DNA from: Candidatus Eiseniibacteriota bacterium
Lineage (GTDB): Bacteria > Eisenbacteria > RBG-16-71-46
Assembly (NCBI GenBank): GCA_041483195.1
Contig: JBGPFC010000044.1
Location: 1 to 28,528 of the forward strand
DNA length: 28,528 nt
Reading direction: 5' to 3'
How positions within the stretch are numbered: the first letter of the stretch is position 1; each line of letters starts with the position of its first letter. Below, one piece after another: positions 1 to 28,433 of the stretch. Made by a program: the position numbers and the translations under genes. The notes beneath the pieces are model-generated. The model worked only from the letters and a program-made list of their open reading frames with translations, was not told the origin of the DNA and did not search any database.

Positions 1-213
1 CCCGACCTATTCATGAACGCGACGTCGTCAGGGTCTGGGGACGAGATCGCGGTGACCGACGCGATCGAGAAGGTACTCCGAGGAGCTTCGCAGTGGTGAG
101 GAGTATCGCGACGCGACGAACGGTGAGCGGCGATGAGCTCACGGCAGCGTTGCAGGCAAGGCTCCGCCCCGAGGCGTGACGAAGGGAGCGCGATGCGAAC
201 GAGGTGCGCGGAC

Positions 214-1584
214 TCAGCCGGGACTTGCGCCGCTCTGCAGGGCGATGCGACGCCAGCCGTCGCGGAACGGGAACGTCTCGGGCAGCCGCAGCACGAGCCG
301 GCGCACCGAGGCGACGACCTGCACGCCGATCTTGAGCAACTCGAGGCGCAGGGTGGCGACCTGGGCGCGCGCCCAGGCGGTGCCGCGGGCGGCGAGCCGC
401 AGCTCCTGGAGCAGCGCGTAGGCGGCCGCCGCGAGCAGGACGCGCAGCTGGTTGGCGCGGAAGCGCGTGCAGCTGGTGCGGTCGATCGCGACGTCGAACA
501 GTTCCTTGATGCGGTTCTCGATCTCGCCGCGCATGCAGTAGAGCCGTTCGTAGATCCGGCGGGGCGAGCGCTGGAGGTTGGTGACGACGAAGCGCGGGTT
601 GTCACGCATCTCACGGCCCTCGAGCTGCACCACCTCGGCCTTGAGAATGACGCGACGCTCGCGGTCCCAGGTGCCGGCGGCGTAGGTGAGCTCGGTGTAG
701 ACGTGTTCGGTCTGTCCGGAGGCGAGGCTCCGCTCGCGGGCGGTGAGCATGTCGAGCGCGGCGAGCCGCACCAGCACCTCGTTCTGGGGCAGGCCGACCA
801 CGTAGTCGACGTCGACCTCATCGAGGAAGGTGAACAGTTCGGTCTCGGCGAAGCCGCCATCGAGGCGCACCAGGATGCGCGCCTGCGGGAACCGTTCCTG
901 CAATCGTTCGAGCAGGGGCTTGAGGATCGCGAGCGCGCCGCGCTGGGTGGGGGCGTTGCCCGGGCGCAGGACCGCCGCGCACAGGTACTGCTCGCACTCG
1001 TGGTCGAAGTTGAGAAACGCCAGCATCGGCAGGTAGCACCAGGTGCCGTAGAAGCCGTTGAAGAAGCTGAGCTGCTGGGCGCCGTGGGTAGGATCGTCGG
1101 TGATGTCGAGGTCCACCGTGATGCGCCGCACCTGGCGACGACGGCGAGCGTGGCGCTCCAGCACCGCTTCGAACAGCGCCTCGCTCATCCCCAGCAACTC
1201 GCCGCGGGTGACGCCGTTCTCGAAGCGCGACAGCGTCGGCTGCGAGGCGAGCGCGTCGCCGGCGACCGGATCACGACCGAGCAACAGCTTGTGCATCGGG
1301 TCTTCGGCGAGCCGGGCCGCGTCGTTCGCATCCTCGTAGCCCAGCGCGAGGCCGAAGATGCGCTGGCCGAGCAGGTCCTCGAGCCCGTGGCGAACCTTGC
1401 CCGCTTCGCGCCCGTCGTCGAGCGCCGCCGCCAGTCGCGCGATCAGGCCGAGCCGGCGATCGGCGGCCTTGAGCAGCACGGCGCCGCCGTCGGAGCTGGC
1501 GTGGGGGACATCGAACCTGGCGGTGAGGGGCTTCCCGAAAAGATCCGGGAACAGTACACAGGGTGTCGTGGTAGAGTGCGACAC
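214..1584 (-). CDS. IS1380-family transposase (DDE_Tnp_1_4)
   Basis: Motifs SSDGGAVLL, GYEDANDA, LASQPTLSRFEN, DLDITDDPTHGAQQ, VRLDGGF and RGEIENRIKE. Probable GTG start at 1584 with GGAGG 7 nt upstream; the ORF track starts at 1623. Confidence 0.95.
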   Translation of the reverse strand: MSHSTTTPCVLFPDLFGKPLTARFDVPHASSDGGAVLLKAADRRLGLIARLAAALDDGREAGKVRHGLEDLLGQRIFGLALGYEDANDAARLAEDPMHKLLLGRDPVAGDALASQPTLSRFENGVTRGELLGMSEALFEAVLERHARRRRQVRRITVDLDITDDPTHGAQQLSFFNGFYGTWCYLPMLAFLNFDHECEQYLCAAVLRPGNAPTQRGALAILKPLLERLQERFPQARILVRLDGGFAETELFTFLDEVDVDYVVGLPQNEVLVRLAALDMLTARERSLASGQTEHVYTELTYAAGTWDRERRVILKAEVVQLEGREMRDNPRFVVTNLQRSPRRIYERLYCMRGEIENRIKELFDVAIDRTSCTRFRANQLRVLLAAAAYALLQELRLAARGTAWARAQVATLRLELLKIGVQVVASVRRLVLRLPETFPFRDGWRRIALQSGASPG

Positions 1585-1585
1585 G

Positions 1586-1650
1586 CGAAGACCTCCGTCC
1601 GTGGAAGAGAGTGGCGTCGACAACCGCTTTCTACCACACGGAGGTCTTCG
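1586..1650 (-). promoter_or_regulatory. Hairpin occluding the transposase RBS
   Basis: Perfect 13-bp inverted repeat CGAAGACCTCCGT (1586-1598) / ACGGAGGTCTTCG (1638-1650) with further internal pairing. One arm contains the RBS. Confidence 0.65.
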
Positions 1651-1833
1651 TGTTCCTCACTTCTTGTGAATAATCCGGGTTAGGAATACCAGCGACCACA
1701 CATCAAGACCCAAAACCCCGGTGGGTGCGACGCTGCTCGGCCACGGAGTCTTCTTGCCCGCAGCGGGGCCAGATTACGTACCGCCTCGGCCTGAAGCCGC
1801 GGCCGTTGTGACGTCGGAGCCACCAAACCGACC

Positions 1834-4200
1834 TCATTCGAGCACGACTATCTTGCGTGTCACGCTCACACCTGCCGCCTCAAGTCGGCAGAAATAGCAA
1901 CCTGCCCTCCATCCGTCAGTTCTAATTGTCACGTCGTAGGCACCCGCGGGGCGCAGCTCACCGTCGAGGAGCACTGCGACCCGGCGACCCTGGAGGTCGT
2001 ACACGACCAGCGATACGGGCGCGCGAGACGGGAGCGTGAAGCGGATCAGAGCCTTCGATGTCGCTGGGTTGGGGACCGCCTGCCCCAGCGACAGCGAAGG
2101 GGCCACTTCGCGCAAGGGAACGTCGACCGTGGTCGAAGTGATCGCCGCCAGATAGGACTGTGGCTGCCTGCCGATAGACGCGAAGTCACCTCCTGCATAG
2201 ACTCTAGCCCCGACCGCCGACACGGCGTACACATGCCAGTCGGCGTCCGGGTTCCACGGGGTAGCAAGACCGGTTGTGGCGTCCAACGCGGCGATGTAGT
2301 TGCGCTGCTGCCCGCCTATGCTCTGGAATTCACCGCCCACATAGACTGTGTTTCCACTCGCCGACACGACGTGCACCCAGCTGCTCGCATTCGGGTTCCA
2401 CGGTGTCAGGACATCCGTTCGGGTGTCCAATGCGGCGATGTGGTGCCGAGACTGCCCAGCGAGAGTGTTGAAGTAGCCGGCGATGTAGACCGTAGTTCCG
2501 CTCGTGGCCAAGTGGTAATACTGGCCGAATGTAGTCGGGTTCCAGGCGGTCGCGGCCCCCGTTATCGTATCCAGGGCCGCGAGGTGGGAGCGGGATTGAC
2601 CGCCGATCCGCGCGAAGTCTCCGCACGCGTAAACCTTGCCTCCACACACCGCCACATCGTGCACCTCCGAGCTCGCGTCCGGGTTCCAGCCCGTCGCGGC
2701 GCCCGTCGTGGCATCCAGTGCGGCGATGCGGTGGCGTACCTGCCCGCCGATACTGGTGAAGAACCCGCAGGCGTACAAGACATCCCCGGACGGCACCACG
2801 CGGTCCACAACATTGTCCGCATCCGGATCCCACGCCGTGGGCGCGCCGCTCGCGGCATCCAGCTCGGCGATTCGGTTGCGAACCTGCCCACCGATGCTGG
2901 TGAAAGACCCGCAGGCGTAGATCCGGCCCGCATTCACCGCGAGATCGTAGACAGGCCCGTTGGCGTTTGGGTTCCAGTCGGTCGGCGCGCCCGTCGTGGC
3001 ATCCAGGGCGGCGAGCCGGTTGCGCGTCAATCCGCCGAACATGAACTCTCCACCGAGATAGATCCTGCTCCCGTTCAGTGCCGCGGAATAGACAACCCCA
3101 CTCATGTTTGGATTCCAATCAGTCACGAGGCCGGTCGCGACGTCGACCGTGGCAATGCGATTTCGCGCTTGCCCGCCGATGTGCCACATGTTCCCGGAGA
3201 CGAACACCGTGGATTCACTCGCCGTCAGGTCGAACACCCAATCATCCGGGTCCGGATTCCAAGCGGTCGCGCCCCCGGTCGCAAGATTCAGCGCCGCAAG
3301 ATAGTTGCGCGCCTGCCCGCCGATGTTCGTGAAGATGCCACCGGCATACACCGCGCTGTCGTTCAACGCAATAGCAGACACGATGTCATCGGCGTTCGGA
3401 TCCCAGGAGGTGGCAAGCCCGGTCGAGGAGTCCAGCGCGGCGATGTAGTTGCGCTGCTGCCCGCCAATGTTCTTGAAGTCACCACCGACGTAGAGTGTGT
3501 TGCCCCTCGTGACGATGGCACGCACCTCGAGATCCGGATTTGGGTCCCAGGGCCTCGCCGCACCGGTTGCAAAATCCAGTGCCGCGAGCCAACTGCGCGC
3601 CCTCCCACCAATGATCGAAAAGAATCCCGAGGCATAGATGGTGTTTCCGTTCACGGCCAGCGCTTCGACCAGGCCACTCGCGTTTGGGTTCCACGCGCTA
3701 GCCGCGCCCGTGGTGGCATCTAGCGCCGCAAGCTTGTTGCGCGTCTGCCCGCCGATGCTGGTGAAATCCCCGCCCACGTACACCGTTGATCCGCTCACCG
3801 CGAGGGCGAGGACCACGTTGTCGGCGTTCGGGTTCCACTCCGCCACGATGCCGTTCGCAAGAATGTGACCCAGGTTGGAGCGAGCGAGCCCTCCTGCGGA
3901 CGCAAAGTCGCCGCCGATGTACCAGCCTCCCGAGCCATCCGGAGCCACTGCAAGAACCCGGCCCGCGATTTTGGGGAATAGTTGCGAGATCGCGCCACTC
4001 GACAGGTCAAGTTGCACGCCCCCACCTGTGGCGCGTCCCACCCGCGTGAAATATCCACCAATGTAAATAGTGTTATGGTCGCGCACGATTGCTGACACGG
4101 TGCCGTCCGTCACCCACAGTCTCGTATCAATGGCCTGGGCACAGACCGTCGTCGCCCCAATAAGCAGAGCGCACGATGCTCTCAATACGAGCGACGTCAT
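1834..4200 (-). CDS. Secreted repeat beta-propeller protein (about 14 x 48-aa W[ND]P repeats) with C-terminal T9SS-CTD/FlgD-like domain
   Basis: Repeat consensus WNPNAD..V.ALAVSG..VYVGG.F.SIGGQ.RN.IAALD.TTG. C-terminus PNP...F.LP...VYDLQGRRV...RKIVVLE. ATG at 4200 has a GGAGGAGG RBS and a signal peptide (MTSLVLRASCALLIGATTVCA-Q). The frame stays open to 4413. Confidence 0.88.
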   Translation of the reverse strand: MTSLVLRASCALLIGATTVCAQAIDTRLWVTDGTVSAIVRDHNTIYIGGYFTRVGRATGGGVQLDLSSGAISQLFPKIAGRVLAVAPDGSGGWYIGGDFASAGGLARSNLGHILANGIVAEWNPNADNVVLALAVSGSTVYVGGDFTSIGGQTRNKLAALDATTGAASAWNPNASGLVEALAVNGNTIYASGFFSIIGGRARSWLAALDFATGAARPWDPNPDLEVRAIVTRGNTLYVGGDFKNIGGQQRNYIAALDSSTGLATSWDPNADDIVSAIALNDSAVYAGGIFTNIGGQARNYLAALNLATGGATAWNPDPDDWVFDLTASESTVFVSGNMWHIGGQARNRIATVDVATGLVTDWNPNMSGVVYSAALNGSRIYLGGEFMFGGLTRNRLAALDATTGAPTDWNPNANGPVYDLAVNAGRIYACGSFTSIGGQVRNRIAELDAASGAPTAWDPDADNVVDRVVPSGDVLYACGFFTSIGGQVRHRIAALDATTGAATGWNPDASSEVHDVAVCGGKVYACGDFARIGGQSRSHLAALDTITGAATAWNPTTFGQYYHLATSGTTVYIAGYFNTLAGQSRHHIAALDTRTDVLTPWNPNASSWVHVVSASGNTVYVGGEFQSIGGQQRNYIAALDATTGLATPWNPDADWHVYAVSAVGARVYAGGDFASIGRQPQSYLAAITSTTVDVPLREVAPSLSLGQAVPNPATSKALIRFTLPSRAPVSLVVYDLQGRRVAVLLDGELRPAGAYDVTIRTDGWRAGCYFCRLEAAGVSVTRKIVVLE

Positions 4201-4387
4201 ATACCTCCTCCAATGGCCCTGGTCACTACGTGTGATCACCTCGCTCGTGCCCCTGGCAATGCGACGGCCGTGTCGCAACAGCCACGGGCGCTGGGGAATC
4301 ACCGAGGCACCGATCACGAAAGGGGCGAATGTGGAGACACTCGCGACGCGGCGGGGAAACGCACCGCACGGGCGCGGTATGACATTG

Positions 4388-4575
4388 CGATTGAACATGA
4401 GCCACCTGCTCATGCCGCAGGAGCATCACGTCTCGCGTGCGGAGCGGCTCACCCCACGCGGGGCGCGCGCGTCGAAGCCGATGGCGTCAGAGGGTGGGTT
4501 CCGGTGAGCGCCACGATTCCAGCTGTGGCGTGCCTCAGACACGGAGAGGGTAGCACTCCCCCATGGCGAGTCCAG
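4388..4575 (-). repeat. Conserved promoter/5' leader element, copy 1
   Basis: 4388-4560 matches 7084-7256 at 167/173 nt, plus a shared GAGTCCAG block at 4568-4575. Confidence 0.95.
4547..4574 (-). promoter_or_regulatory. Putative sigma70-type promoter TGGACT-N16-TACCCT with extended -10 TG
   Basis: Both boxes are identical in the second copy (7243-7270) while part of the spacer differs. Confidence 0.55.
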
Positions 4576-4595
4576 TGCGCGTCTACCGGCTGCCC

Positions 4596-7109
4596 CTAAC
4601 GGAGCATGACCAGCCTCTTGACCGCGACCTCACGCCCCGCGCGGACTCGCAGGACGTAGACGCCCATACGCGTCATCGCGCCCGAGTCATCCCGCCCGTC
4701 CCAGCGGATTCTGTGCTCGCCCGGCGTCTCGAGCCCCCCGGACACCAGTGACCGAACCTTGCGTCCGGCGAGATCGAACATGCTCAAGTCCACGGTGCAC
4801 GCGATCGGCAGTGCGTATCGAAACTCGTTCGTTCCGTGAGAAGGATTGGGAATGGGTGCTGCAAGCTGAAGAAACTGCGAAGCGACGAATGGCGCTTGAT
4901 TCACATCGAGTGTTCCAGGTCCGATGTTCATGAGCACCACAACTCGGTTGTAGGTCGCCACCGCCAAGTCGGGCCTTCCGTCTGCGTTGAGATCCCCGAT
5001 CGTTACCGTGGAGGGTCCGGCTCCAGCTCCGAAGTCCGTCTTCTTCCCAAAGCCCCCGTCACAGTTCCCGAGCAGCACCGAGACCGTGTTGGAGCCGTTC
5101 GCTACAGCTAGGTCGGGTTTTCCATCCACGTCGAGATCCCCAATCGCCACGGAGCTGGGCTGGCTCCCCGTGCTGTATTCGGTATTCACTCCGAAGCTCC
5201 CGGCGCCGTTGTTGAGCAGTACCGAAACCGCACTCGAGTAGGAGTTCGCTACCGCCAGGTCGGGGTTGCCGTCGCCGTTCATGTCGCCGATCGCCACGAA
5301 GCTGGGATAGTCCCCCGTGCCGAAGTCGGTCTTCGCCCTGAAGGTTCCGTCGCCGTTTCCGAGCAGGACCGAAACCGTATTGGAGCGGCAGTTGGCCACG
5401 GCGAGATCGGCTTTCCCGTCCGCGTCGAGGTCGCGGATCGCCACGTACGCCGGGACTTGCCCCGTTCCGAAGTCGGTCCCCATACCGAAGGTGCCGTCCC
5501 CACGACCGAGCATCACCGACACCGTGTTTGAGGTGGAGTTCGTAACCGCCAAGTCAAGCTTGCCATCCATGTTGAGATCCCCGATCGCCACGGAGAAAGT
5601 GACCCCCCCAGCCCCGAGGTCAGTCTTCTCCCCGAAGGTCCCGTCGCCACGGCCGAGCAAAACTGACACTGTGTTAGAGAAGTAGTTTGCCACCGCCAAG
5701 TCGGGGCTGCTGTCGCCGTTGAGGTCCCCGATCGCCACGGAGATTGGACCATCCCCCGTCCTAGAGTCCCTCTTCGTCCCGAACGTCCCGCCACCGCTGC
5801 CGAGCAGCACGCACACCGTGTTGGAGTCCGAGTTCGCTACCGCCAGGTCTAGTTTCCCGTCCGCGTTGAGGTCCCCGATCGTCATGGGGCCGAACCCACC
5901 GCCCGTCTCGAAGTTTGCCTGCGTCCCGAAGCTCCCGGTGCCGTCGCCAAGCATCACGGACACGGCACTCGAGGTTGCATCCGCCACAACCAGGTCGGGT
6001 TGCAGATCGGCGTTCAGATCCCCGATCCGTACGGATTGGGGGGTAACCCCCGCCCCGAAGTCGGTCTTTGCCCCGAAGGTCCCGTCGCCGTTGCCGGGCA
6101 ACACCGACACCGTGCTGGAGGCTGAGTTCGCCACCGCCAAATCGGTGTTGCCGTCGCCGTTGAGATCCTCAATCGATACGAAGGTGGGAGATCCCCCCGT
6201 TGCGTATTCGTGCTGAATGCTGAACGTGCCATTGCCATTGCCAATGAGAACCGACACCGCGCTGGTACCGTAGTTCGCCACCGCGAGATCGGGGTTCCCA
6301 TCCGAGTCAAGGTCCCCGATCGTCACGGAGAACGGCAGGCTACCCGTTCCGAAGCCAGTCCTCGCCCCGAAGGTCCCATCACCATTTCCGAGCAGTATCG
6401 ACACCGTGTTGGCCCCCCAGTTGGTCACCGCCAGGTCGGGTTTCCCGTCGGCGCTGAGGTCCCCGATCGCCACAGAGGTGGGTCCACTCCCCGCCCCGAA
6501 GTCGGTCTTTGCCCCGAAGGTCCCGTCGCCATTGCCGAGCAGCACTGACACGGTGTTGGACCCGCGATTCGCGACTGCCAGATCGGGCTTCCCGTCCATA
6601 TTCAAGTCCTCGATCGCGACCGAAAAGGGCTGGGCAGCCGTGTGGAAGTCGGTCTTGCCGCCGAAGGTCCCATCGCCATTGCCGAGCAGTACTGACACTG
6701 TATTCGAGCTTCCGGTCGCCACCACCAGGTCGAGCTTCGCATCGGCATTGAGATCCCCGACCGCCACCGAGTAAGGCTCGCTCCCGGTTTGGAAGTCCAT
6801 CCTTGCCTGAAATGTCCCGTCCCCGTTGCCGAGCAGCACCGACACCGCATGGGAACCAGCGTCCGCCGTCGCGAGGTCGAGCTTTCCATCCCCGTTGAGG
6901 TCCGCCATCACCATGGCGAAGGGCTCCCTGCCCGTGTCAAACGATAGGAACGGTGCGGCGAACAAGGGAGCCGCGACAGCGACTCGCAGTTGAGCTGTGG
7001 AGATGACGACTGCGCACAGGGGGAGCGAAGAGATCATGGCGACGCCGCGGGCGAACCCACCGCGCGTGCGTTGTGTCGCTTTTCGATTGAACATGAGCCA
7101 CCTGCTCAT
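4596..7109 (-). CDS. Secreted FG-GAP/VCBS repeat protein (14 x 49-aa repeats) with C-terminal FlgD-Ig/T9SS-CTD-like domain
   Basis: 14 GDLNxDGKxDLAVAN...VSVLLGNGDGTF repeats. C-terminus PNPS...DLAGRKVRSL...WDGRDDSG...KRLVMLR. The start could be the second ATG at 7094. Confidence 0.92.
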   Translation of the reverse strand: MSRWLMFNRKATQRTRGGFARGVAMISSLPLCAVVISTAQLRVAVAAPLFAAPFLSFDTGREPFAMVMADLNGDGKLDLATADAGSHAVSVLLGNGDGTFQARMDFQTGSEPYSVAVGDLNADAKLDLVVATGSSNTVSVLLGNGDGTFGGKTDFHTAAQPFSVAIEDLNMDGKPDLAVANRGSNTVSVLLGNGDGTFGAKTDFGAGSGPTSVAIGDLSADGKPDLAVTNWGANTVSILLGNGDGTFGARTGFGTGSLPFSVTIGDLDSDGNPDLAVANYGTSAVSVLIGNGNGTFSIQHEYATGGSPTFVSIEDLNGDGNTDLAVANSASSTVSVLPGNGDGTFGAKTDFGAGVTPQSVRIGDLNADLQPDLVVADATSSAVSVMLGDGTGSFGTQANFETGGGFGPMTIGDLNADGKLDLAVANSDSNTVCVLLGSGGGTFGTKRDSRTGDGPISVAIGDLNGDSSPDLAVANYFSNTVSVLLGRGDGTFGEKTDLGAGGVTFSVAIGDLNMDGKLDLAVTNSTSNTVSVMLGRGDGTFGMGTDFGTGQVPAYVAIRDLDADGKADLAVANCRSNTVSVLLGNGDGTFRAKTDFGTGDYPSFVAIGDMNGDGNPDLAVANSYSSAVSVLLNNGAGSFGVNTEYSTGSQPSSVAIGDLDVDGKPDLAVANGSNTVSVLLGNCDGGFGKKTDFGAGAGPSTVTIGDLNADGRPDLAVATYNRVVVLMNIGPGTLDVNQAPFVASQFLQLAAPIPNPSHGTNEFRYALPIACTVDLSMFDLAGRKVRSLVSGGLETPGEHRIRWDGRDDSGAMTRMGVYVLRVRAGREVAVKRLVMLR

Positions 7110-7271
7110 GCCGCAGGAGCATCACGTCCCGCGTGCGGAGCGGCTCACCCCACGCGGGGCGCGCGCGTCGAAGCCGATGGCGTCAGAGGGTGGGTTCCGG
7201 TGAGCGCCACGATTGCGACTGTGGCGCGCCTCAGACCCGGAGAGGGTAGCACTCCCGCGGGGAGAGTCCAG
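7084..7271 (-). repeat. Conserved promoter/5' leader element, copy 2
   Basis: Direct repeat of 4388-4575 at an offset of 2696 bp. Confidence 0.95.
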
Positions 7272-7316
7272 GGTGACCAAAGGGACCGGGGCCCCGCCCG
7301 CCCCATTCGCGAGGCC

Positions 7317-10175
7317 TCACCTCAACACGACGGACTTGGCCGAAAGCGCTCGGCCCGCCTGCGTGAGACGGATGACGTAGACCCCGCCCTGGAGCGCGCG
7401 CCCGGCGGCGAGATTGACTTCGTGCCAGCCCGGGCCCAGTCGCCCGCATTCTCTGGAGGCGATCCTTCGACCGGCGACGTCGAACAGCTCGAGCGTCGCA
7501 GCATCGTCGGTCGGCAGCTCGACCGAGACGACGATCGCATCGCCGCTCGAAGGATTGGTCTGCGGCCGCGCCGATAGCACGAGCTGCGCCACGTGCACCC
7601 GGGCCCCCACGATGACGTCGGCTCCGTCGATGCTCGCGCGCAGGCGGTACTCGTAGTCGCCCGGGGACACGCTGCTCTCTTCGTACACCCACCTCCCGCT
7701 CGCGTCCGATACGACCCTGCCGACCTGCTGCCACGGGACATCAAGCGCCCTTCGATCCACTTCGGCCTCCGCCCCCGACCCGCGCGGTCCGGCCCAGGTC
7801 AGTTGCACCCGGCCGCCGCGAACCTCGGTCCCGACCAGTGAGATGTTGGTGGCCGTGATCGTCCCGCTCCGCACGAGCGTCGAGCAGGTGTCCTGGTATC
7901 CGGGAATGAACGGGTCGCGAGCGGTGAAGCGGACCACGGTCGAATGTCCGTCGGAGCCCGCGGGCGGGTGGAGCGTCGCCGACACGTTCAGCGTTCCCCC
8001 GTTCGCGGCGAGCGTCTGCGATCCCGACATCGCGGGGGCGGCGCCGGTGATCCAGCCCGCGTCATCCGAGAGCGTCCACTCCAGCGGCGTATCGAAGTTG
8101 CACCCGTTCGCCAGGGAGAAGTCGATCGCCGTGTTCTGATCCGCGGGGATCGTGCGCGCTCCGGGGCACACGACGGTCGTGCTCAACACCGAGGCGTCCA
8201 CGAACACGTCGGGATCGCCCAGTCGAGAATCCGTGAAGGCGGAGTAGAGATGGTCGCCATCGATCGCCAGCTCGGCGAAGTCTCCCTGGTTGTTGCTATT
8301 GCACGAGGCGAGCGCCCCCCACAGAGATGACGCATCCGAGAGCCTGCGATTCGCGCCCCATGTCGTCCCGCCATCGCCGGACGAAGCCAGGTACTGGTCG
8401 GAGGTCGCGCCGCACGACGGATCGCCGCGGTAATCCATCCAGAAGCAGTGCACGCGCCCGCGGCCGTCGACCGCGATCGACTCGAGGTGTCCGTCGAACC
8501 CTACCGCGCTGTCGTTGATGCGCACCGGCGCGCTCCAGGTCAACCCGTCATCCGAGTGCGCCACGAACTGGTCTCGGATGTCGCGGGCGAGGTCGCCCGG
8601 GGCCGGCGGGTCGAGGCCCGTGACGAACGTGTAGGTGCCGACGTTCGCGAATGGAGACTGGATCTGAAGATAGTAGCGGCCGTCGTACGGCAGCCCGGCG
8701 ACGAAGCCGTACGGATAGGTGGCGAGGACGTGGTAGTTGGCCAGCGTCGAGGTATCGGAAGGACAGATGAGACGCACGCGCAACGTGAGAGTCTCGGGGT
8801 TGAGCGAATCGGCGAAGATCGAGATCACCTGGCCGTGCTTGCCGGTGAACGTGAACATGTCGTTCTCGACCCCGGGAACTGAGCCGCGAAGCTTCACGCC
8901 GGGCGTGAAGGGCGTCGGCGATGCGAAGAAGTTGTTGTTCTCCCGCTCGACCACGACCGTGGATGAGTCGAAGACCGTGTCGAACACGTCGGGCATCTCG
9001 TTCCAGGTCAGATAGAGGCGCCCGCGATGCGGGCCGTGGCTCATGTCGACCGCCATGGACATCAGCGGCTCGAAGAATCCCCGCTGGTCTCCCGGCGGAA
9101 TGGCCTCCACGTTGAAGCTGAACGTGTGCGCCACCGCGACCGGGCCGAACGTGGCGCCGAAGTCGTCAGAGCGCACGACCTCGAACGCGCTCGAAGTCGG
9201 GGTGGTCCCGTCGGTCGTGGCGCCCCAGCCGACGTACACCCTGCCGTCGGGGCCGGCGACCCCGTAACTGCCCTGCACGTCGAACTGAGGAATGGCGTTC
9301 GATCGAAGCACCTGACGCGAGCCGAGTGGGGCGAGGTTCGCGTCCAGCCGCTGGAGCTCGATGCCCTCTGAATCCGTCGCGAAGTTGAAGTTCGTCCACG
9401 TGACGTAGACATCTCCGGAGAGCGAATCGACCGCCACCCACGGCTTGTCGTGGAGTTCGTCCGGGGTGGAGAGCGAGACGACGGTGCGAACGTCGATCGA
9501 GAAGGTGTCCGCCACGAAGTGCCCGCGCAGTGCCACGACGCCGCCGAAGGTGCCGCTCGAGCCCGACTTCATCAGCCCCGTGATATAGAACGCGCCGCTC
9601 TTGCGATTGACCGCCACCGAGGGATCACCGGCGAAGAGGTATTGCGAGGAGGGACCGTACAGCAGTCCCCCCTCGCGGAACGTGGCGCCGAAATCCACGG
9701 AGTATCCGAAGCTTTGCCCCGGATTGGTCCCGCTCATGCAGCGTCCGCGCGGCTCGTTCCAGCTGACCAGCACGTAGCGGCCCCAGGCGTCGACGGATTC
9801 CTCCGCCTGGTTGAGCGGCCGGCCCGAACAGGTGCAGATGCTCAGGCTCCGATTGTTGACGATGGCGTCGGGCCCCAGCGCCGGCGGCGCGCTCAGGCCG
9901 ATGATCGAGGATTCGGTGGAGACGCGTTCGGCGGGCGCCGCCTCCCGCAACGCATCGAGCGCCTCGAGGCGCTCGATGTGCGCGCGTACGCTGGGAATGT
10001 GGTGATAGGCCCCGGCGTCCCACAGATCGAGCAACAGGCCTTCGCCGGCGGATGAGAGCGGAACGAACGCGTCTGGGGGTCGCGCGCGGGGACCGAATCG
10101 CGCGGAGGCCGCAGCCGGAAGGAGGGCCAGCCACGCGAGGATGAGCACGGCCGGGGCAAGCGCTCGACGTGGCAT
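7317..10175 (-). CDS. Secreted sialidase-like (BNR/Asp-box) propeller protein with PPC-like insert, Ig-like domains and T9SS-CTD-like C-terminus
   Basis: Asp boxes YSVDFGATF, RSDDFGATF, HSDDGLTW and SSGDGGTTW. Signal peptide MPRRALAPAVLILAWLALLPAAASA. GGAG precedes ATG 10175. C-terminus LFDVAGRRI...KSVVLR. Confidence 0.85.
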   Translation of the reverse strand: MPRRALAPAVLILAWLALLPAAASARFGPRARPPDAFVPLSSAGEGLLLDLWDAGAYHHIPSVRAHIERLEALDALREAAPAERVSTESSIIGLSAPPALGPDAIVNNRSLSICTCSGRPLNQAEESVDAWGRYVLVSWNEPRGRCMSGTNPGQSFGYSVDFGATFREGGLLYGPSSQYLFAGDPSVAVNRKSGAFYITGLMKSGSSGTFGGVVALRGHFVADTFSIDVRTVVSLSTPDELHDKPWVAVDSLSGDVYVTWTNFNFATDSEGIELQRLDANLAPLGSRQVLRSNAIPQFDVQGSYGVAGPDGRVYVGWGATTDGTTPTSSAFEVVRSDDFGATFGPVAVAHTFSFNVEAIPPGDQRGFFEPLMSMAVDMSHGPHRGRLYLTWNEMPDVFDTVFDSSTVVVERENNNFFASPTPFTPGVKLRGSVPGVENDMFTFTGKHGQVISIFADSLNPETLTLRVRLICPSDTSTLANYHVLATYPYGFVAGLPYDGRYYLQIQSPFANVGTYTFVTGLDPPAPGDLARDIRDQFVAHSDDGLTWSAPVRINDSAVGFDGHLESIAVDGRGRVHCFWMDYRGDPSCGATSDQYLASSGDGGTTWGANRRLSDASSLWGALASCNSNNQGDFAELAIDGDHLYSAFTDSRLGDPDVFVDASVLSTTVVCPGARTIPADQNTAIDFSLANGCNFDTPLEWTLSDDAGWITGAAPAMSGSQTLAANGGTLNVSATLHPPAGSDGHSTVVRFTARDPFIPGYQDTCSTLVRSGTITATNISLVGTEVRGGRVQLTWAGPRGSGAEAEVDRRALDVPWQQVGRVVSDASGRWVYEESSVSPGDYEYRLRASIDGADVIVGARVHVAQLVLSARPQTNPSSGDAIVVSVELPTDDAATLELFDVAGRRIASRECGRLGPGWHEVNLAAGRALQGGVYVIRLTQAGRALSAKSVVLR

Positions 10176-10271
10176 CGCGGTCTCCAAATGTGCTACCGGC
10201 GGGGGTGTGCCACGATTTTATCACGAGCGCCGTGCGTGCGGCCACGCCCCGGCGGCCACGCCGCCCGTCGC

Positions 10272-10730
10272 CTACGGCAGCCACCTCGCGAGCAGCCACC
10301 TGCCGAGGTGCAGGGTGCCCAGCGCGGTCGCGCCCGCGATCACGTCGTCGATCACCACGCCGATGCCGCCCGGCAGCTTCTGCGCCTCGCGCGCGCCGAG
10401 CGGCTTCCACACGTCGTAGATGCGGAACAGCACGAACGCCACGCCGAAGTAGATCCATTGATGCGGCACCGCGATCAGCGCGAGGCTCTGGCCCACCACC
10501 TCGTCGGCCACGATCGGATGCGCATCGTGACCGAGTTCCTTCTCGGCCTCGCCGCAGATCCAGATCGCTGCGGCGGTGCCGGCGACGAACAGCGCGACGG
10601 TCACAGGCCAGGCTGGCACCGGCAGGAACCATCCGATGAGCGCCACGACCAGGCTCGCGACGGTGGCGGGGACGATCGGCGAGAAGCCGATGCCGCCCAG
10701 CGTCGCGAGCGCGCGGACCAGCGCCTTCAT
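10272..10730 (-). CDS. pgpA: Phosphatidylglycerophosphatase A
   Basis: HDAHPIVADEVVGQ, FVLFRIYDVWKP and GGIGVVIDDVIAG. ATGA overlap with the mglA stop. Confidence 0.9.
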   Translation of the reverse strand: MKALVRALATLGGIGFSPIVPATVASLVVALIGWFLPVPAWPVTVALFVAGTAAAIWICGEAEKELGHDAHPIVADEVVGQSLALIAVPHQWIYFGVAFVLFRIYDVWKPLGAREAQKLPGGIGVVIDDVIAGATALGTLHLGRWLLARWLP

Positions 10731-11350
10731 GCGCTCGCCGCTTGCGCTGGGACCGGCTGGGGGCCGGCGAGCCGCGCGAGCACCGCCTTGCATGCCGCGC
10801 GCAGCGTCTCGGTCACGCCGCGGCCCTCGCACGCGACGGCCTCGAATTCCGGAGCGCCCTCCGGATTGAGCGCGGCGCGCAACCGCTCGATCGGAACCGC
10901 GGACGCGAGATCGCGCTTGTTGTACTGGAACAATCGTGGCACGCGCCGTACCTGATCCGCATTCAGTCCGTTCGCGGTCAGGTGCTGTTCGAGATCGACG
11001 AGCGAATCGCGGTTCGCCCCTTCACGCGCGGGATGCGAGTCGGCAACGAACACCAGGCCGTCCACGCCCTGCAGCACCACGCGGCGCGAGAGCCGGTAGT
11101 AGACCTGCCCCGGCACGGTATAGAGATGGAAGCGCGTGGTGAAGCCGTTCACCTGCCCGAGGTCGATCGGCAGGAAGTCGAAGAACAGGGTGCGCTCGTG
11201 GTCGGTGGCGATGGAGATGAGGCGGCCGCGCCGCTCGGGCGGGAGCCGGTCGTGGAGCTGCTGGAGATTGGTGGTCTTCCCGCACAGACCGGGGCCGTAG
11301 TACACGATCTTGAAATGAATCTCGCGCGCCCGATGATTGATGAGCGCCAT
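10727..11350 (-). CDS. mglA: MglA-family small Ras-like GTPase
   Basis: KIVYYGPGLCGKTTNL, ERTLFFDFLP, FHLYTVPGQ, GVDGLVFVADS and NKRDL. Confidence 0.95.
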   Translation of the reverse strand: MALINHRAREIHFKIVYYGPGLCGKTTNLQQLHDRLPPERRGRLISIATDHERTLFFDFLPIDLGQVNGFTTRFHLYTVPGQVYYRLSRRVVLQGVDGLVFVADSHPAREGANRDSLVDLEQHLTANGLNADQVRRVPRLFQYNKRDLASAVPIERLRAALNPEGAPEFEAVACEGRGVTETLRAACKAVLARLAGPQPVPAQAASA

Positions 11351-11396
11351 CTCGCCCCCGTGGCGGCCGCGCGATCCGCCGCGGCGGGCCCGCGCT

Positions 11397-11882
11397 TCAG
11401 TCGCCGAACAGCGCGTCCACCTCGCGTCCGGCGGCGTCCGCGAACTCGGGCGAGGTCTCGGCGGTCTCGCCGATGCCGATCTTCTCGAACAACCCGCGGA
11501 ACACCTCGTCGAGCTGCCCGCCGGCACGCCGCGCGCGGAAGCGCACCAGGCCGAGCGTGCTGCGCTTGTCGAACACGGTGCACATGATGACGCGATCCGC
11601 CAGCAGGCACGAGTGCACCGATCGGGTCTTGCCCTCGCTCACCACGGCTTCCACGCCACGCTCGCCCAGCAATTGCGACAGCTCCGCATTCGCCGTGAAA
11701 TCCGCGGCGACCAGGCTGGCGAATGCCGTTGCGTCGAAGTCGCCCGTGCGCCCGGCCGTGGTGATCAGCTGGCCGGAGCGATCGACGAGGTGCACCGAGA
11801 GCGCGTTGGTGCGCTCCAGCAACTCGCTCAGGACGAGGTCGATGGCCCGAAAGTCATTTTCGAACAGAGTCCATTGAGGCAT
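11397..11882 (-). CDS. mglB: MglB roadblock/LC7 GTPase-activating protein
   Basis: LVDRSGQLI, FASLVAADFTANAELSQLLGE and FDKRSTLGLVRFR, with an acidic C-terminal helix. Directly upstream of mglA. Confidence 0.92.
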   Translation of the reverse strand: MPQWTLFENDFRAIDLVLSELLERTNALSVHLVDRSGQLITTAGRTGDFDATAFASLVAADFTANAELSQLLGERGVEAVVSEGKTRSVHSCLLADRVIMCTVFDKRSTLGLVRFRARRAGGQLDEVFRGLFEKIGIGETAETSPEFADAAGREVDALFGD

Positions 11883-11959
11883 GGCACCCCCCCCGCGCTC
11901 CGGCGGTGTGTGGGTTGGCCGAGGAGACTCCGTGGCACGTCCTTGTGAAGCCGCGGCAA

Positions 11960-12001
11960 TGGGTATCACGCGCGGGGCGTCGGGGCAAGGAAAGTTTTTT
12001 A
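11960..12001 (-). promoter_or_regulatory. Putative mglBA promoter: A-tract, then TTGCCC-N17-TACCCA with extended -10 TG
   Basis: A rare A-rich tract precedes sigma70-like boxes about 80 nt upstream of mglB. Confidence 0.45.
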
Positions 12002-15975: not shown

Positions 15976-16003
15976 AGAGTTCCGGTTCCGCGGCGTGCAA
16001 GAA

Positions 16004-16101
16004 GGGCCAGGCGTACAGCGGCACACCCGAGGGATTGCTTACCGCTGCTACCTTCCGGTCCTGACGGGGTTCACAAGTTCGGGTTGCGCTGGGCCTGGCC
16101 C
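16004..16101 (-). ncRNA. ffs: SRP RNA (small, 4.5S type)
   Basis: Helix-8 signature GTCAGGACCGGAAGGTAGCAGC, complementary ends GGGCCAGGC/GCCTGGCCC, and position upstream of dnaX. Confidence 0.95.
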
Positions 16102-16109
16102 AAGAAAAA

Positions 16110-16185
16110 TGGTGGAGATGAGCGGATTCGAACCGCCGACCCCCTCGTTGCGAACGAGGTGCTCTCCCAGCTGAGCTACATCCCC
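16110..16185 (-). tRNA. tRNA-Ala(CGC)
   Basis: 76-nt cloverleaf, anticodon arm CCTCG-TTCGCAA-CGAGG, G3:U70 pair, encoded CCA. Confidence 0.97.
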
Positions 16186-21014: not shown

Positions 21015-21105
21015 TGGCGGAGAGAGAGGGATTCGAACCCTCGAGGCGGTATTAGCGCCTACACGATTTCCAATCGTGCTCCTTCAACCGCTCGGACACC
21101 TCTCC
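21015..21105 (-). tRNA. tRNA-Ser(GGA)
   Basis: Anticodon arm CACGA-TTGGAAA-TCGTG, long variable arm, G73 and CCA. Confidence 0.97.
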
Positions 21106-22615: not shown

Positions 22616-22779
22616 GGCGCCGCTCGCGCCCCCCCGCATTTCGCGCTCCCTCGCGCGCCCGCCCCGGCCGATAACCCAGACGCTCCCTCGGGCCATGTCC
22701 CTCGGCACCACTACGGCTTAGCCGCCGGCCTGTGCCCAGCGAGGTCTTCTTCGGCGGCGCTTCGCTCGAGGAGAAGACC

Positions 22780-24828
22780 ATGCGTTCAGGTCGTTGTCCG
22801 CGCCGCGCCTGCATAGCACTCGCGTTCGCCTTCGCGATGATGGGCGCGGCGTCGTATGCCGCGGGATCGAGCCCGCCCGCCATCGCCGACAGCTCGAGTC
22901 AGCACGATCTGACCGGGGTCGCGATCGAGGACCTCATGAACATCGAGGTCACCTCGGTGTCGAAGCGAGTGCAACCGCTCTCGGAGACACCCTCGGCCGT
23001 GACGGTCATCGATCACGAGGAGATCCGGCGTTCGACCGCCACCTCGGTGCCCGAGCTGCTGCGGATGGTGCCCGGGCTCGACGTGGCCCAGATCGACGCG
23101 AACAAGTGGGCGATCAGCGCGCGCGGATTCAGCGGCCGCTACGGGAACAAGATGCTGGTGCTGATCGACGGCCGCAGCGTGTACTCGCCGTTGTTCGCTG
23201 GCGTGTACTGGGACGTGCAGGACGTGATGCTCGAGGACGTCGAGCGCATCGAGGTGATCCGGGGTCCCGGCGGCACGGTCTGGGGCGCGAACGCCGTGAA
23301 CGGCGTGATCAACATCATCACCAAGCCCGCGGAAGACACGCAGGGCGTGCTGTTCACCGGCGGTTCGGGGTCCGAGGAGCGCGGGTTCGGCGTCGCCCGC
23401 ATCGGGGCGGGCGCGGGCACGCGCGCGCCGTTCCGCGCGTCGCTTCACTATCGCAAGGTCGATCCCTCGATCGAGCTCGGCCCGTTGCTGGCGTTCGACA
23501 CCTCGCACCTGCTGCACGGCGGCCTGCGCACCGACTGGACGATCTCGGGTCGATCCTCCCTCACGTTGCAGGGCGACCTCTACGGCGGCAACGAGAACAC
23601 GACCTCCACCATCGCGATGCTCAGCCCTCCGTTCATGGCAGATCGCCAGTACGGCACCGACCTCGGGGGCGGTAACGCGCTCGCGCGCTGGAGCCACACG
23701 TTCTCCGATCGATCGGACGTCAAGCTCCAGATCTACTACGACCAGGCCGGACGCGACGCGTTCCTCTACCGCGAGCGGGTGCAGACGGCCGACCAGGACT
23801 TCCAGCATCACGTCTTGTTGGGCAGCCGGCAGAACGTCGTGTGGGGATTCGGGCACCGGTACATCCGGCTCGATCTGGGAGGCTCGCCCACCATCTCGTT
23901 CGCATCGCCGCGCCAGACCGTCCACCTCCTCGAATGCTTCGTGCAGGACGAGATCGAGGTGGTCGCGAACCGCCTCCGGGTCACGCTCGGCTCGAAGGGC
24001 GAGAACCACAGCGAGTTCGGGTTCGAGCTCTCGCCGACCGCGCGAATCGCCTGGACGCCCGACGCACACCAGACCCTGTGGGCGGCGGTCTCACGCGCGG
24101 TGCGAACCCCCGCACGGATCGAGAGCGATCTGCGCGCCGACTACGCGGCGTTCCCCGGCGGCGGCGGTCCCCCGAACGAGGTCGCGCTGTTCGGCAACAA
24201 GGACCAGCGCGCCGAGGTGGTGATCGCGAAGGAAGCCGGCTACCGCGTCGAACCGCGGCCTCATCTCGCGCTGGATGGGGCGCTCTTCTACAACAATTAC
24301 GACGACCTGCGCACCTACGAGCCCGAGACGCCATACCTCGAGATGACTCCGGCGCCGCCCCACGTCGTGGTCCCGCTCCGATGGGGCAATCTGATGAAGG
24401 GCCGCACCTATGGCGCCGAAGGCAGCGTGGCCTGGATGGCCACCTCCAACTGGAGACTCACCGCGCAGGCCACGGTGTTCCGGATGGATCTCATGGCCAA
24501 ACCGGCGAGCGTGGACACGGCGTCCTCGGTCAACGAGAACAACGATCCCGAGAGCAAGCTTTCGCTCTCGTCCAATCTGATCCCGGTTCGGAATCTGGAG
24601 TGCGACGCCACGATTCAGTACGTGGGCGGCCTGACGACGCAGAAGGTGCCGGCGTACACACGGATCGACCTCCGCGTCGGCTGGCATCTGATTCCCGGCC
24701 TGGAGCTGAGCGTCGCGGGGCTGAACCTGCTCGACGACCGCCATCCGGAATGGTCAACGGCCACCGAGCTGGCGATTCCGAGCGAGGTCGAGCGCAGCGG
24801 CTACGGAAAACTGACGTGGCGCTTCTAG
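22780..24828 (+). CDS. TonB-dependent outer-membrane receptor
   Basis: Plug motifs EVTSVSK, LRMVPGL, LVLIDGR and [11 protein letters not shown]...[15 protein letters not shown]-terminal NLLD...LTWRF. GAGGAG RBS. Confidence 0.95.
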
Positions 24829-25433
24829 CATTTCCGGCGAGAGTCGATGCGGTCGCAAGGCATCGGCTGATCGCCTTCGCCCGGCGCGTCGCGTCGGCGC
24901 TGATGCTCTGCGCCGCCGCGCTCGGCACTGTCGTGACGCCGGGCGCTTGCGCGGTCGCGTCCGCTCCCACCGAGTACGAGGTGAAGGCGGCGTTGCTCTA
25001 CAACTTCGCCAAGTTCGTCTCGTGGCCCGATTCCGCCTTCGAGGACGCCCGCGCACCGTTCATCATCGGAGTCCTGGGCGACGATCCGTTCGGCGACATC
25101 CTGGAACGGACGGTGAACGACCGGCGGGTCGGCGAGCGGCCGTTCGTGATCAGGCGATGGACCAGGGTCGAGGACGCGCGGCCCTGCCACATCCTGTTCG
25201 TGAGCGCGTCCGAGCAGAAGCGCGTGCCGCGCCTCATCCAGGGCATCGCGGGCGCGAACATTTTCACGGTCGGCGACGTCGAGGGCTTCGCGGAACGAGG
25301 CGGCATCGCCGACTTCGAGATGGACGGCAAGCGCGTGCGGATCGAGATCAATCCGAAGAGCGCCGATCGCGCGAAGCTGCATATCAGCTCCAAGCTGCTC
25401 GCGCTCGCGCGCATCGTGAAGGACGCGCACTGA
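24816..25433 (+). CDS. YfiR-family (DUF4154) periplasmic regulator
   Basis: [35 protein letters not shown] and [11 protein letters not shown]. Probable GTG start overlapping the receptor stop; the start is uncertain. Confidence 0.9.
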
Positions 25434-28273
25434 TGCACACCCCCGTCGCGCGCTGGCTTCGCGACAGCCCGATCCGGCGCAAGATGGTGGCGATCACCAT
25501 GTTCACCAGCGGCGCCGCGCTGCTGCTCACGTGCGCCGTCATGTTCGCCTATGACCTGCACGCCCTGCGAGCCGACACGCTGCGCCGGCTCTCGACGCTC
25601 GCCGACATCATCGGCGCGAACAGCACCGCGGCTCTGACCTTCGACGACGAGGCCGCAGCTCGCGAGGTGCTCTCCGCCCTCGCACATCAGCGTTCGATCG
25701 TGACCGCCTGCGTCTATTCCCGGACCGGCGCGGCGTTCGCCGTGTACCGGCGCGCAGGCGACGCGAGCGGGTTCGTCCCGCCGCCCGCCCCCCGGGCGCC
25801 GATCCACGTCGGCTCGAACGACCTCAGCGTCTTCCGCCCCATCCTGCTCGACGGCCAGGAGATCGGCGCCGTGTACATCGAGAGCGACTCGGCCGAGATG
25901 CGCGAACACCGGGTCCGCTTCGGGACGATCGTGCTGGTGGTGATGGCGTTCGCGCTCCTCATCGCCTTCCTGCTCTCGGACCGCCTGCAGCGCGTGATCT
26001 CCGGGCCGGTGCTGGCGCTTGCTCAGGCGGCCAACAGGGTCTCCGTCGAGAAGGACTATGCGGTGCGCGTCGTCGAGACCGGCGAGGACGAGCTGGGGCA
26101 CCTGGTCGAGAGCTTCAACGGCATGATCGAGCAGATCCAGCTGCGTGACGAGGAGCTGCGCAGCCATGGCGAGCACCTCGAGGAGGAAGTCGCGAAACGC
26201 GTCGCCGAGTTGCACGAGATGAACGCCCAGCTCATCACGGCCCGCGACCGCGCCGAGGAGGCGAGCCGCACCAAGAGCGACTTCCTCGCGAACATGAGTC
26301 ACGAGATCCGCACGCCGCTCAACGGCGTGATCGGCATGACCGAGCTGGCGCTCGACACCGCGCTCACCGACGAGCAGCGCGACTACCTCGAGACCGTGAA
26401 GACCTCGGCCGAGAGCCTGCTCTCGGTGATCAACGACATCCTCGACTTCTCGAAGATCGAGGCGGGCAGGCTCGATCTCGACAACATCGAGTTCGCATTG
26501 CGCGAGAGCGTGGACAAGACCATGCGTACGCTCGCGCTGCGCGCGCACCAGAAGGGCCTCGAGCTGCTGTGCGACGTCCGCCCCGAGGCGCCCGAGCACC
26601 TGATCGGCGATCCGGGCCGGCTGCGGCAGGTGCTGCTCAACCTGACCGGCAACGCGATCAAGTTCACGGAGGCCGGCGAGATCGTCGTGGCGGCCGAGGT
26701 CGAGCGCGTCGGAGACGGCGAGGTGACGCTGCACTTCAGCGTCTCGGACACCGGGATCGGCATTCCGGCGGAGAAGCAGCAGCGCATCTTCGAGGCCTTC
26801 TCGCAGGCGGACGCCTCGACCACGCGAATCTACGGCGGCACCGGGCTCGGTCTCGCGATCTCGTCGTCGCTGGTCACGATGATGAAGGGACGGATCTGGG
26901 TCGAGAGCGAGCCCGGTCGTGGCAGCACGTTTCACTTCACGGCCGTGCTCGGGGTGCCGGCCGCCGCGCCGGCCGCCGCAGCCGTCGCCGACCCCGCGCT
27001 GCGCGGCATGCGCACGCTGATCGTCGACGACAGCGCCACCAACCGCCGCATCCTCCACGAAATGCTGGAGGGGTGGCAGATGATTCCGGTGGCGGTGGAA
27101 TCCGGCGAAGCCGCGCTCGAAGCGCTCCGCGCCGCGCACGCAGCGCACCGGCCATTCCAACTGCTGCTGCTCGACCGTCACATGCCGGTAATGGGTGGCT
27201 TCGCGCTTGCCGAGCGCATCCGGCAGCTGCCCCATGTCACGCGGCCCGCGACCATCATGCTCAGCTCCAGCGGCCACAAGGGGGACGCCGAGCGCGGCCG
27301 CCAACTCGGCATCGGCGTGCATCTCACCAAGCCCATTACCAAGCTCGAACTCGAGCTGGCGATCCGCCGGGTCGTGGGAAATGCCCCCCAGCCCGCGGAT
27401 TGGCCGCAGTCCGCAGCCGAAGTCGGGGCCGACGGCGCCACGACACCCGCCGCGCCCGCGGCGCCGTCCGTCCGCAGGCGGGTGCCGGCGGTGTTGCCTC
27501 GCGTCGACCACCCGGGGAGCGTGCTGGTCGCAGAGGACAACCCGATCAACCAGCGGGTGACGCTGCGGATGCTCGAGAAGCTCGGACACACCGTGGTGCT
27601 CGCGGCGAACGGCGAGGAGGCGGTGGCCGCGTTCCGTCGCCAGCAGTTCGATCTGGTGCTGATGGACGTCCAGATGCCGGTGATGGGCGGGTTCGACGCG
27701 ACCGCCGCGATCCGGGCGATCGAGGCAGCATCCGGCGCGCACGTTCCGATCATCGCGCTCACCGCGCATGCGATGAAGGGCGATCGCGAGGCGTGCCTGC
27801 TCGCCGGGATGGACGATTACGTGAGCAAGCCCATCAAGCGCGAGGAACTGATCGAGGTCATGAATCGCGTGATGATCCGGCGCGCCGGCAGCGACGCCGA
27901 GACCGACGCGCAAGGCGTGCCCTCGGCGCCGCACTTCTCGGTCAGGGACCTGCTCGCTCGCCTCGATGACCACGAGGACTTCGCGCGGGAGCTGGTCGGC
28001 CATTTCCTCACGCACGAGCCGGCGCTGCTCGCGGATGCGCACGAGGCCATCACGAGCGGGGATTGCGAGCGGCTCGAGCGAGCGGGGCGCAGGCTCAAGG
28101 ACGCGCTGCGCGTCATCGCGGCGGGACCCGCGGCGGATGCGGCGGAGCGGCTCGAAGTGATCGGAGGCAGCGGGAAGCCCACCGGCGGCGAGGCCGGATG
28201 GACGACGCTGGTCGATGAGCTCGCTCGCCTCGACCCCGAGCTGGAGGCGTTCGCGCTGCGCAAGGCGGCGTAG
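25433..28273 (+). CDS. Hybrid sensor histidine kinase: TM, CHASE8-like sensor, TM, HAMP, HisKA, HATPase, REC, REC, degenerate Hpt
   Basis: [10 protein letters not shown] (YfiN-like sensor), [39 protein letters not shown] and GGTGLGL, then two receiver domains. TGATG overlap with the yfiR-like gene. Confidence 0.95.
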
Positions 28274-28343: not shown

Positions 28344-28433
28344 TGGCGGAGAGGGAGGGATTCGAACCCTCGAGGCGCTTACACGCCTAACGGTTTTCGA
28401 GACCGCCACCTTCAGCCACTCGGCCACCTCTCC
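28344..28433 (-). tRNA. tRNA-Ser(CGA)
   Basis: Anticodon arm GCGGT-CTCGAAA-ACCGT, long variable arm and CCA. Confidence 0.97.

Follow-up and report, generated by a model that had tools for sequence, protein, structure and literature searches.

A leader shared by two neighbouring secreted-protein genes in an Eisenbacteria genome and its relation to an FG-GAP gene family

The genes of the locus and the repeated block

The window, by which we mean the whole stretch of DNA analysed, comprises 28,528 nt of a contig from a Candidatus Eiseniibacteriota bacterium. The features relevant here all lie on the minus strand and are given below in order of position.

1..1679, minus strand: IS1380-family element downstream of gene A (NF033539, 371 bits), multi-copy and unrelated to the leader
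1834..4200, minus strand: gene A, DUF5122 repeat protein (predicted beta-propeller) with a T9SS type A sorting domain; the frame is open to 4413
4198..4211, minus strand: gene A's own putative ribosome-binding site GGAGGAGG and ATG (MTSLVLRA...), as read in the sequence
4300..4398, minus strand: signal-peptide stump of the FG-GAP family, 33 codons (MFNR...VIGASV), in frame with gene A
4388..4575, minus strand: leader copy 1, comprising predicted promoter, 5' untranslated leader and the first 11 coding nt; near-identical core 4388-4560
4396..4449 (copy 2, 7092-7145), minus strand: family-conserved leader core, from alignments A1-A3
4547..4555 (copy 2, 7243-7251), minus strand: extended -10-like site TGCTACCCT, a motif with predicted function
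4574-4569 (copy 2, 7270-7265), minus strand: -35-like TGGACT, the last conserved island between the window copies
4596..7094, minus strand: gene B, FG-GAP repeat protein with a FlgD_ig/T9SS-like C-terminal domain
7084..7271, minus strand: leader copy 2, which belongs natively to FG-GAP gene B; near-identical core 7084-7256
7317..10187, minus strand: gene C, upstream of the pair and lacking the leader; predicted to be secreted

The bodies of genes A and B belong to different repeat families, as the first-pass annotation had stated: gene A is a DUF5122 propeller (PF17164, E 1.2e-26), and gene B carries 13 stretches that match FG-GAP_3 (PF13517). Gene A resembles type A cargo of the T9SS in that it passes both TIGR04183 (35.5 bits, cut-off 23) and PF18962 (27.7 bits), and the genome has homologues over cut-off of SprA (403 bits) and of the PorV family (eight matches, six of them over cut-off on their own). 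In contrast, gene B scores over cut-off as FlgD_ig (PF13860, 29.5 bits) with TIGR04183 at 21.2 bits against the cut-off of 23, and gene C, which has several paralogues in the genome, has no match in Pfam or NCBIfam; export is a prediction throughout. Copies of the IS1380 element are also found at other contig ends.

The two leader copies, 4388-4560 and 7084-7256, lie at an offset of 2696 bp and differ at 6 of 173 positions (4433, 4519, 4521, 4522, 4531 and 4541 in copy 1). This recomputed count agrees with the earlier one, as does the spacing of 20-45 bp from the previous gene, since the homology begins 20 and 45 bp past the stop codons of gene B (4596) and gene C (7317), respectively. Identity peaks in a central tract, from which it declines in steps on both sides. 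The tract itself, 4388-4518, is identical at 130 of 131 positions, with one mismatch; the next segment upstream, 4519-4560, at 37 of 42 (5 mismatches); and 4561-4575 at 11 of 15 (4 mismatches), beyond which identity drops to a background of 27%. On the coding side, 4323-4387 retains 43 of 65 positions (22 mismatches, 66% identity) and 4290-4322 is 42% identical. An assembly artefact was considered and is ruled out by contigs from four public runs placed on positions 1-12000: contigs from two independent runs, X2 and X3, have an end 30 nt inside the shared stretches, at 4417 and 4489 in both runs, at 7113 in X3 and at 7185 in X2. Breaks of this kind are what two real copies, each with both of its flanks, would produce.

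A leader family in the order and its anatomy

In the 4.17-Mb genome, BLASTN found just two close copies of the leader. A third, diverged copy (G000:C36:36616-36888) is colinear with them, is 62-63% identical over the last 120 nt and heads the closest paralogue of gene B (56% amino acid identity), while the five other gene B paralogues and three gene A paralogues in the genome have no leader. A BLASTN-type search of 100 relatives gave nothing convincing (the top match outside, at 44.6 bits, spans 42 nt) and found the leader in none of the three same-genus genomes, a search too insensitive for the diverged copies found by later models. A profile built from the three copies detected the leader before FG-GAP genes of relatives, and a model made from 11 copies (R1) matched 17 of 102 genomes of the order at E<=0.05. 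Its 23 matches comprise the 11 training copies, six accepted as new, one that is doubtful (G035) and five dropped as chance matches, which lie inside or against other genes. Pattern scans added one metagenome locus (L255); the scan of genome contigs gave at least 120 stretches, which we rejected as chance matches, the best among the matches listed reaching E 8e-4 against the three-copy profile. In total 18 copies were accepted, three in this genome, 14 in 11 relatives and one on a metagenome contig, so that copy 1 has 17 homologues. A sequence-only model (R2) run on 151 genomes of the phylum returned 13 strong matches (>=42 bits), all known already and all in two families of the order (f1 and f3), followed by a gap down to 25.5 bits. 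The possibility raised at first pass that only two copies exist thus holds for near-identical copies, whereas diverged homologues are widespread in the order. A non-exhaustive search of the literature on Eisenbacteria and secretion, in the parts of the sources available, returned no account of this leader.

The same FG-GAP subfamily, with a mature start close to 'PLFAAPFLSFD', is headed by 15 of the 18 copies, a share inflated by the eight of 15 outside copies that were found through FG-GAP queries; among the seven copies found without such a query, five head the subfamily. The leader is present at 6 of 29 non-self FG-GAP loci and at 0 of 29 non-self gene A-family loci (30 fetched of 470 matches).

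Extended -10 sites are an established type of sigma-70 promoter. In both window copies a -35-like hexamer lies 16 nt upstream of the extended -10-like site, and as conservation between the copies ends with this hexamer, the start of the shared block coincides with the predicted promoter. TGCTAnnnT is found 138-158 nt before the start codon in 10 of the 18 copies; TGnTAnnnT has a genome-wide frequency of 0.049 per kb. The site fits an extended -10 promoter, a function that we predict from the motif, and would leave a leader of about 145 nt between promoter and start. A generic sigma-70 scan called no promoter-like site, the extended -10-like site included. The same scan called one terminator-like site, within gene B.

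The best-conserved part of the family is the core, some 55 nt that precede the start; its mean pairwise identity is 0.68 (153 pairs), whereas the 5' leader reaches 0.53 and the signal-peptide DNA 0.58. Its layout is AGCCGC, 25 nt, GCGGC, a purine-rich ribosome-binding region and the start codon. Because the reading frame differs between family members the core is non-coding, and coding constraint on the leader is ruled out. The first-pass annotation had placed the first codons, MSRWLMFNR, within the block. The start conserved across the family is instead the second ATG (MFNR), at 4398 in copy 1 and 7094 in copy 2; the first ATG ('MSRW') occurs only in the two window copies, where a change in the purine-rich stretch has created it, and the other 16 homologues have AGG or similar there. 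With the start at the second ATG, the coding part amounts to just 11 of the 173 nt.

Diverged signal-peptide sequences next to a probably homogenised leader

Between copy 1 and gene A lies the signal-peptide stump, which aligns with the signal peptides of the family up to 'VIGASV' and is followed by about 100 nt of unrelated DNA before GGAGGAGG. About 200 bp past the family start, gene A carries a ribosome-binding site and a start of its own; the ATG at 4200 opens a normal signal peptide, and gene A-family homologues align from about this ATG. The drop to about 70% identity in the coding tail, seen at first pass, is real, but the tail is an FG-GAP signal-peptide stump and not the N-terminus of gene A. 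The stump is likely the remnant of a lost tandem paralogue, to judge from its alignment with the family, and as the frame from 4398 is open into gene A, translation of gene A could begin at the family ATG or at its own.

For genes A and B the leader (last 120 nt) is 0.99 identical and the signal region 0.58, a gap of 0.41. Across the other 152 pairs the gap has a mean of 0.02 (sd 0.07) and a maximum of 0.21; in G067b/G064, the single close orthologous pair by which drift of leader and signal can be calibrated, it is 0.11 (0.91 vs 0.80). Tree distances between the two copies are 0.012 for the leader and about 0.88 for the signal region, and Fisher's test gives p 2e-9 for the 173-nt core compared with the 65 nt that follow it, the boundary having been set after viewing the data. 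Given that the gap of 0.41 is an outlier among 153 pairs, we believe that the 5' ends of two old paralogues have recently undergone gene conversion. The alternative that a young duplicate decayed fast was rejected. The stump has an identity of 0.68 with L255 and of 0.58 with gene B, and its end shares 12-13 of 18 nt with six family members as against 8 of 18 with gene B; it thus keeps family letters that gene B has lost, as expected of an old paralogue and not of a decayed recent copy. Nor does constraint explain the 99% identity, since within 80 columns copies 1 and 2 depart together 17 times from what most of the other 16 copies show. Other leader pairs within one genome are 55-68% alike: 68% for two tandem copies in G067 and 55-57% for the three copies of G108. 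The 99% identity would be explained if a tract of 130-190 bp had recently been copied from one of these nearby repeats to the other, although a single crossover that inserted gene B, combined with repair of the tract, would be indistinguishable from pure conversion.

We propose, with a probability of roughly 70%, that the block serves one FG-GAP family as predicted promoter, leader and start, that copy 1 sits on a captured stump and that the two leaders were homogenised by gene conversion. First, tandem duplication or insertion would have produced the arrangement [leader-B][leader-B']. A deletion or illegitimate recombination would then have put gene A about 33 codons into B', replacing its body, after which gene A would be transcribed from the promoter of the FG-GAP family. 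Later, RecA-type recombination between the repeats would have copied the 130-190-bp tract, in either direction. This order of events is a reconstruction from a comparison base of one genome per species, with three same-genus genomes that lack the leader. Under this proposal genes A and B would be co-expressed, and the repeats would permit rare deletion or amplification of gene B as a by-product, with no dedicated system. G067 offers a parallel: it has two tandem leader-FG-GAP genes, the second truncated, a layout that resembles the ancestor we infer for this locus. Ordinary gene-family evolution is likely to account for the locus, rather than a mobile cassette system.

Alternatively, gene B may have arrived as a circle or fragment with its own leader and entered leader-stump-A by homologous crossover, with heteroduplex repair then homogenising the leaders; in that case cargo genes would land at the leader in a RecA-dependent manner. 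A single crossover gives the layout [leader-B][leader-stump-A], identity peaks in the central tract and falls on both sides, family members occupy different loci in most genomes, some of them beside genes that resemble those of transposases or phages (as read from translations), and the G+C of genes A and B is about 63% against about 70% for the genome. However, same-genome leaders that are 55-68% alike are poor crossover substrates, leader-stump-A alone was seen at none of the 29 gene A-family loci, and among the 18 copies there is no other inserted gene between two near-identical leaders. On balance, we regard this route as unlikely.

Regulation, portability and comparison with known systems

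The conservation of a non-coding core raises the question of regulation. One broad proposal, also unlikely and slightly more so, sees in the core a translational switch not described before, in which a hairpin would cover the ribosome-binding site; the leader, captured repeatedly and kept alike by recombination, would act as a reusable expression-and-export head that places unrelated T9SS cargo under one signal and allows cargo genes to be swapped within the population. Under a narrower proposal the core would be a cis-regulatory RNA that hides the ribosome-binding site in a hairpin, or the site of a regulator, and selection for co-regulation would keep the copies alike. The excess of conservation over the signal-peptide DNA favours this, as do a 5-bp stem kept in 92% of cells and a long hairpin that covers the ribosome-binding site in the folds of several single sequences (z as low as -3.6). 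Yet the structure tests show no covariation, the 5-bp stem being reached by 93 of 500 shuffles and a 16-bp hairpin by 473-491 of 500; consensus folding gave just the 5-bp stem, with one double change per candidate structure. These tests have limited power with 18 sequences, and pairing with a ribosome-binding site cannot covary. Over the 18 copies the mean z is -0.93, the copy 1 leader folds no better than its shuffles (z 0.21), and Rfam has no match in the window or in five homologous loci. A regulatory role for the core is possible; it would not explain the 99% identity, as selection would not freeze 85 nt that vary freely in the family, and as an account of the repeat we find it improbable.

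The first-pass annotation had proposed a portable expression element or a recombination handle for surface-protein cassettes. A promoter-like leader at the head of T9SS-type cargo is supported by the C-terminal domain matches and by SprA and PorV; neither a free portable element nor a dedicated cassette handle is supported, given that 15 of 18 copies stay with one FG-GAP subfamily and that there is no fixed junction. Only three copies head bodies from outside the subfamily: the DUF5122 propeller of gene A, after about 33 codons of stump; a sortilin/BNR protein in G108 (G108b), fused in frame after about 55 codons; and an FG-GAP protein with ASPIC-UnbV in G013, after about 22. Three captures at three breakpoints are compatible with deletion or illegitimate recombination and argue against a site-specific joint.

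Integron gene cassettes with their attC sites, and MITEs or IS ends, likewise interpose short repeats between the unrelated genes of an array. The present block differs from these in being the 5' end of a gene, with a promoter-like site and a start codon, and the array differs from integron cassettes in that no site follows gene A, the crossover point is not fixed and no integrase match lies on the contig. That the block is a site-specific joint between cassettes, or a small mobile element (an attC-like integron site, MITE or IS end), is very improbable and largely refuted: the closely spaced array of three secreted-protein genes, the variable gene after pgpA and the tyrosine recombinases encoded elsewhere in the genome (14 PF00589 matches) are what speaks for it, whereas no terminal inverted repeats join the ends in both copies, close copies number two in 4.17 Mb with none in the plasmids searched or, by consensus pattern scan (0 matches), in viral contigs, none of the 14 PF00589 matches is on this contig, which ends at the IS past gene A, neither gene C nor the end of gene A has a leader copy, and the breakpoint is different in each chimera. 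The match to an IS end or MITE that the first pass had envisaged was likewise absent when the leader was compared with IS1380 and the other repeats of the genome.

Contig depth over gene B is like that of its neighbours in four runs, with summed contig depths of 10.4, 12, 8.6 and 4.8 for its unique part and 9.4, 7.1, 10.2 and 4.6 for gene C. Equal depth of the two genes is a weak sign against frequent excision, in contigs where the joint between copies 1 and 2 is invisible because 85 identical nt exceed the contig word length, as inferred from the break points. Among the joints listed, 15 of 94, none links the two copies. The gene after pgpA varies across the four genomes seen, being cinA-like in G001 and other genes in G004 and G005 (two of the five genomes searched have no pgpA match), so the site is variable, but no neighbour carries the leader.

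In its layout the locus can be likened to the erp genes of Borrelia burgdorferi (ospE/ospF/elp, with their 'upstream homology box'), for which the parts of the account available describe one promoter, leader and localisation sequence ahead of bodies of many origins, with frequent recombination (PMC10016077). Here too, one leader and signal start heads unrelated bodies, in 3 of 18 copies, and leader and adjacent coding DNA diverge discordantly (0.99 vs 0.58). In contrast, a cell has many erp genes, which encode lipoproteins and occupy a single allelic site of cp32 prophages, whereas the present loci are scattered with one homogenised pair, the leader is tied mostly to one FG-GAP family (15/18) and the cargo is of T9SS type. 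The likeness is one of layout and not of descent, and a sequence relation is not expected. Similarly, in the lpl genes of Staphylococcus aureus, tandem secreted-protein paralogues are reshuffled through homologous recombination at a conserved stretch and show discordant phylogenies within genes, according to the portion of the study available (Tsuru and Kobayashi 2008, PMC2568036). That stretch lies in the middle of the ORF and shuffling is described in many strains, whereas here the shared stretch is promoter and leader and the neighbours are of different families; the locus is not a member of lpl by descent.

No new mobile-element or cassette system is revealed by this locus, and the part with some novelty is the undescribed, lineage-restricted leader core alone. 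The motif defined here, which is conserved and has no Rfam match, is a candidate regulatory element. If the family-leader reading is correct, the start codons of genes A and B are fixed, and the locus would be an example, from an uncultured lineage, of a secreted-protein repertoire that grows through captured promoters and signals and through local homogenisation.

Leader copies and their relatives

In public sequencing run X1, 85% of which was read, no contig covered window positions 4001-4400 (within the stretch 3766-4800), and copy 2 of the 173-bp leader was spanned unbroken from 7084 by a single contig, unlike in run X2. At this coverage of the run, the X1 contig pattern is not evidence.

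The motif RR-E/G-F-x-RR is frequent within the first 20 codons of signal peptides in the leader family (loci L235, L250, L232 and L251), and it resembles a twin-arginine motif; the signal peptide of the FG-GAP gene behind copy 2 has lost the first RR. A possible fourth capture of the leader by a non-family gene lies in relative G035, where approximately 170 nt separate a weak match from a downstream secreted-type gene that is unrelated and has a ribosome-binding site of its own. This match was excluded from the counts of leader copies.

G035:C12:1128785-1128906, weak leader match L244 (34.7 bits)

The tandem genes of relative G067 (L235, L236) are separated, upstream of the leader, by approximately 600 nt containing an opposite-strand frame reminiscent of a serine-recombinase C-terminus, and DNA resembling this stretch also lies upstream of the leader copy in relative G064.

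IS1380 ends and FG-GAP paralogues

The window opens with a transposable element, the contig start being the element's end. Ends identical to its own occur at six other contig ends in the genome, and two related copies lie on C35 and C49; the flank is TTAG at the window element vs CTAG at the other copies. Three FG-GAP paralogues run into IS1380 ends, and the pieces on C62 and C50 may be two halves of a single interrupted gene.

1-1679, complete IS1380-family element
C59:8912-12631, FG-GAP paralogue
C62:120-1166, FG-GAP paralogue
C50:137-1642, FG-GAP paralogue

The pgpA neighbourhood and other genes

Directly after pgpA, relative G001 carries a cinA-like gene. In the genome under study that gene is on a contig other than pgpA's, where an apparent tRNA 3' fragment (judged by eye) precedes it together with DNA of foreign appearance; here the linkage between pgpA and cinA is broken. 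Upstream of pgpA, a gene pair resembling MglA/MglB keeps the same order in G001 and G005.

C48:2270-3744, cinA-like gene
10727-11877, minus strand, small GTPase-like and roadblock-like genes
16002-16185, 21018-21105, 28347-28433, small SRP RNA and three tRNA genes
22732-28273, plus strand, TonB-receptor-like, small periplasmic-type and hybrid sensor kinase genes in a row (from translations)

Direct repeats elsewhere in the genome

Direct repeats of 210-310 bp (89-97% identity) were found at four further places. At least three of these are gene ends duplicated around inserts of 2.9-3.6 kb, an arrangement that resembles integration-site duplications.

C3:166557-170462, direct repeats
C4:40699-43869, direct repeats
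C13:72695-75810, direct repeats
C13:75373-84123, direct repeats
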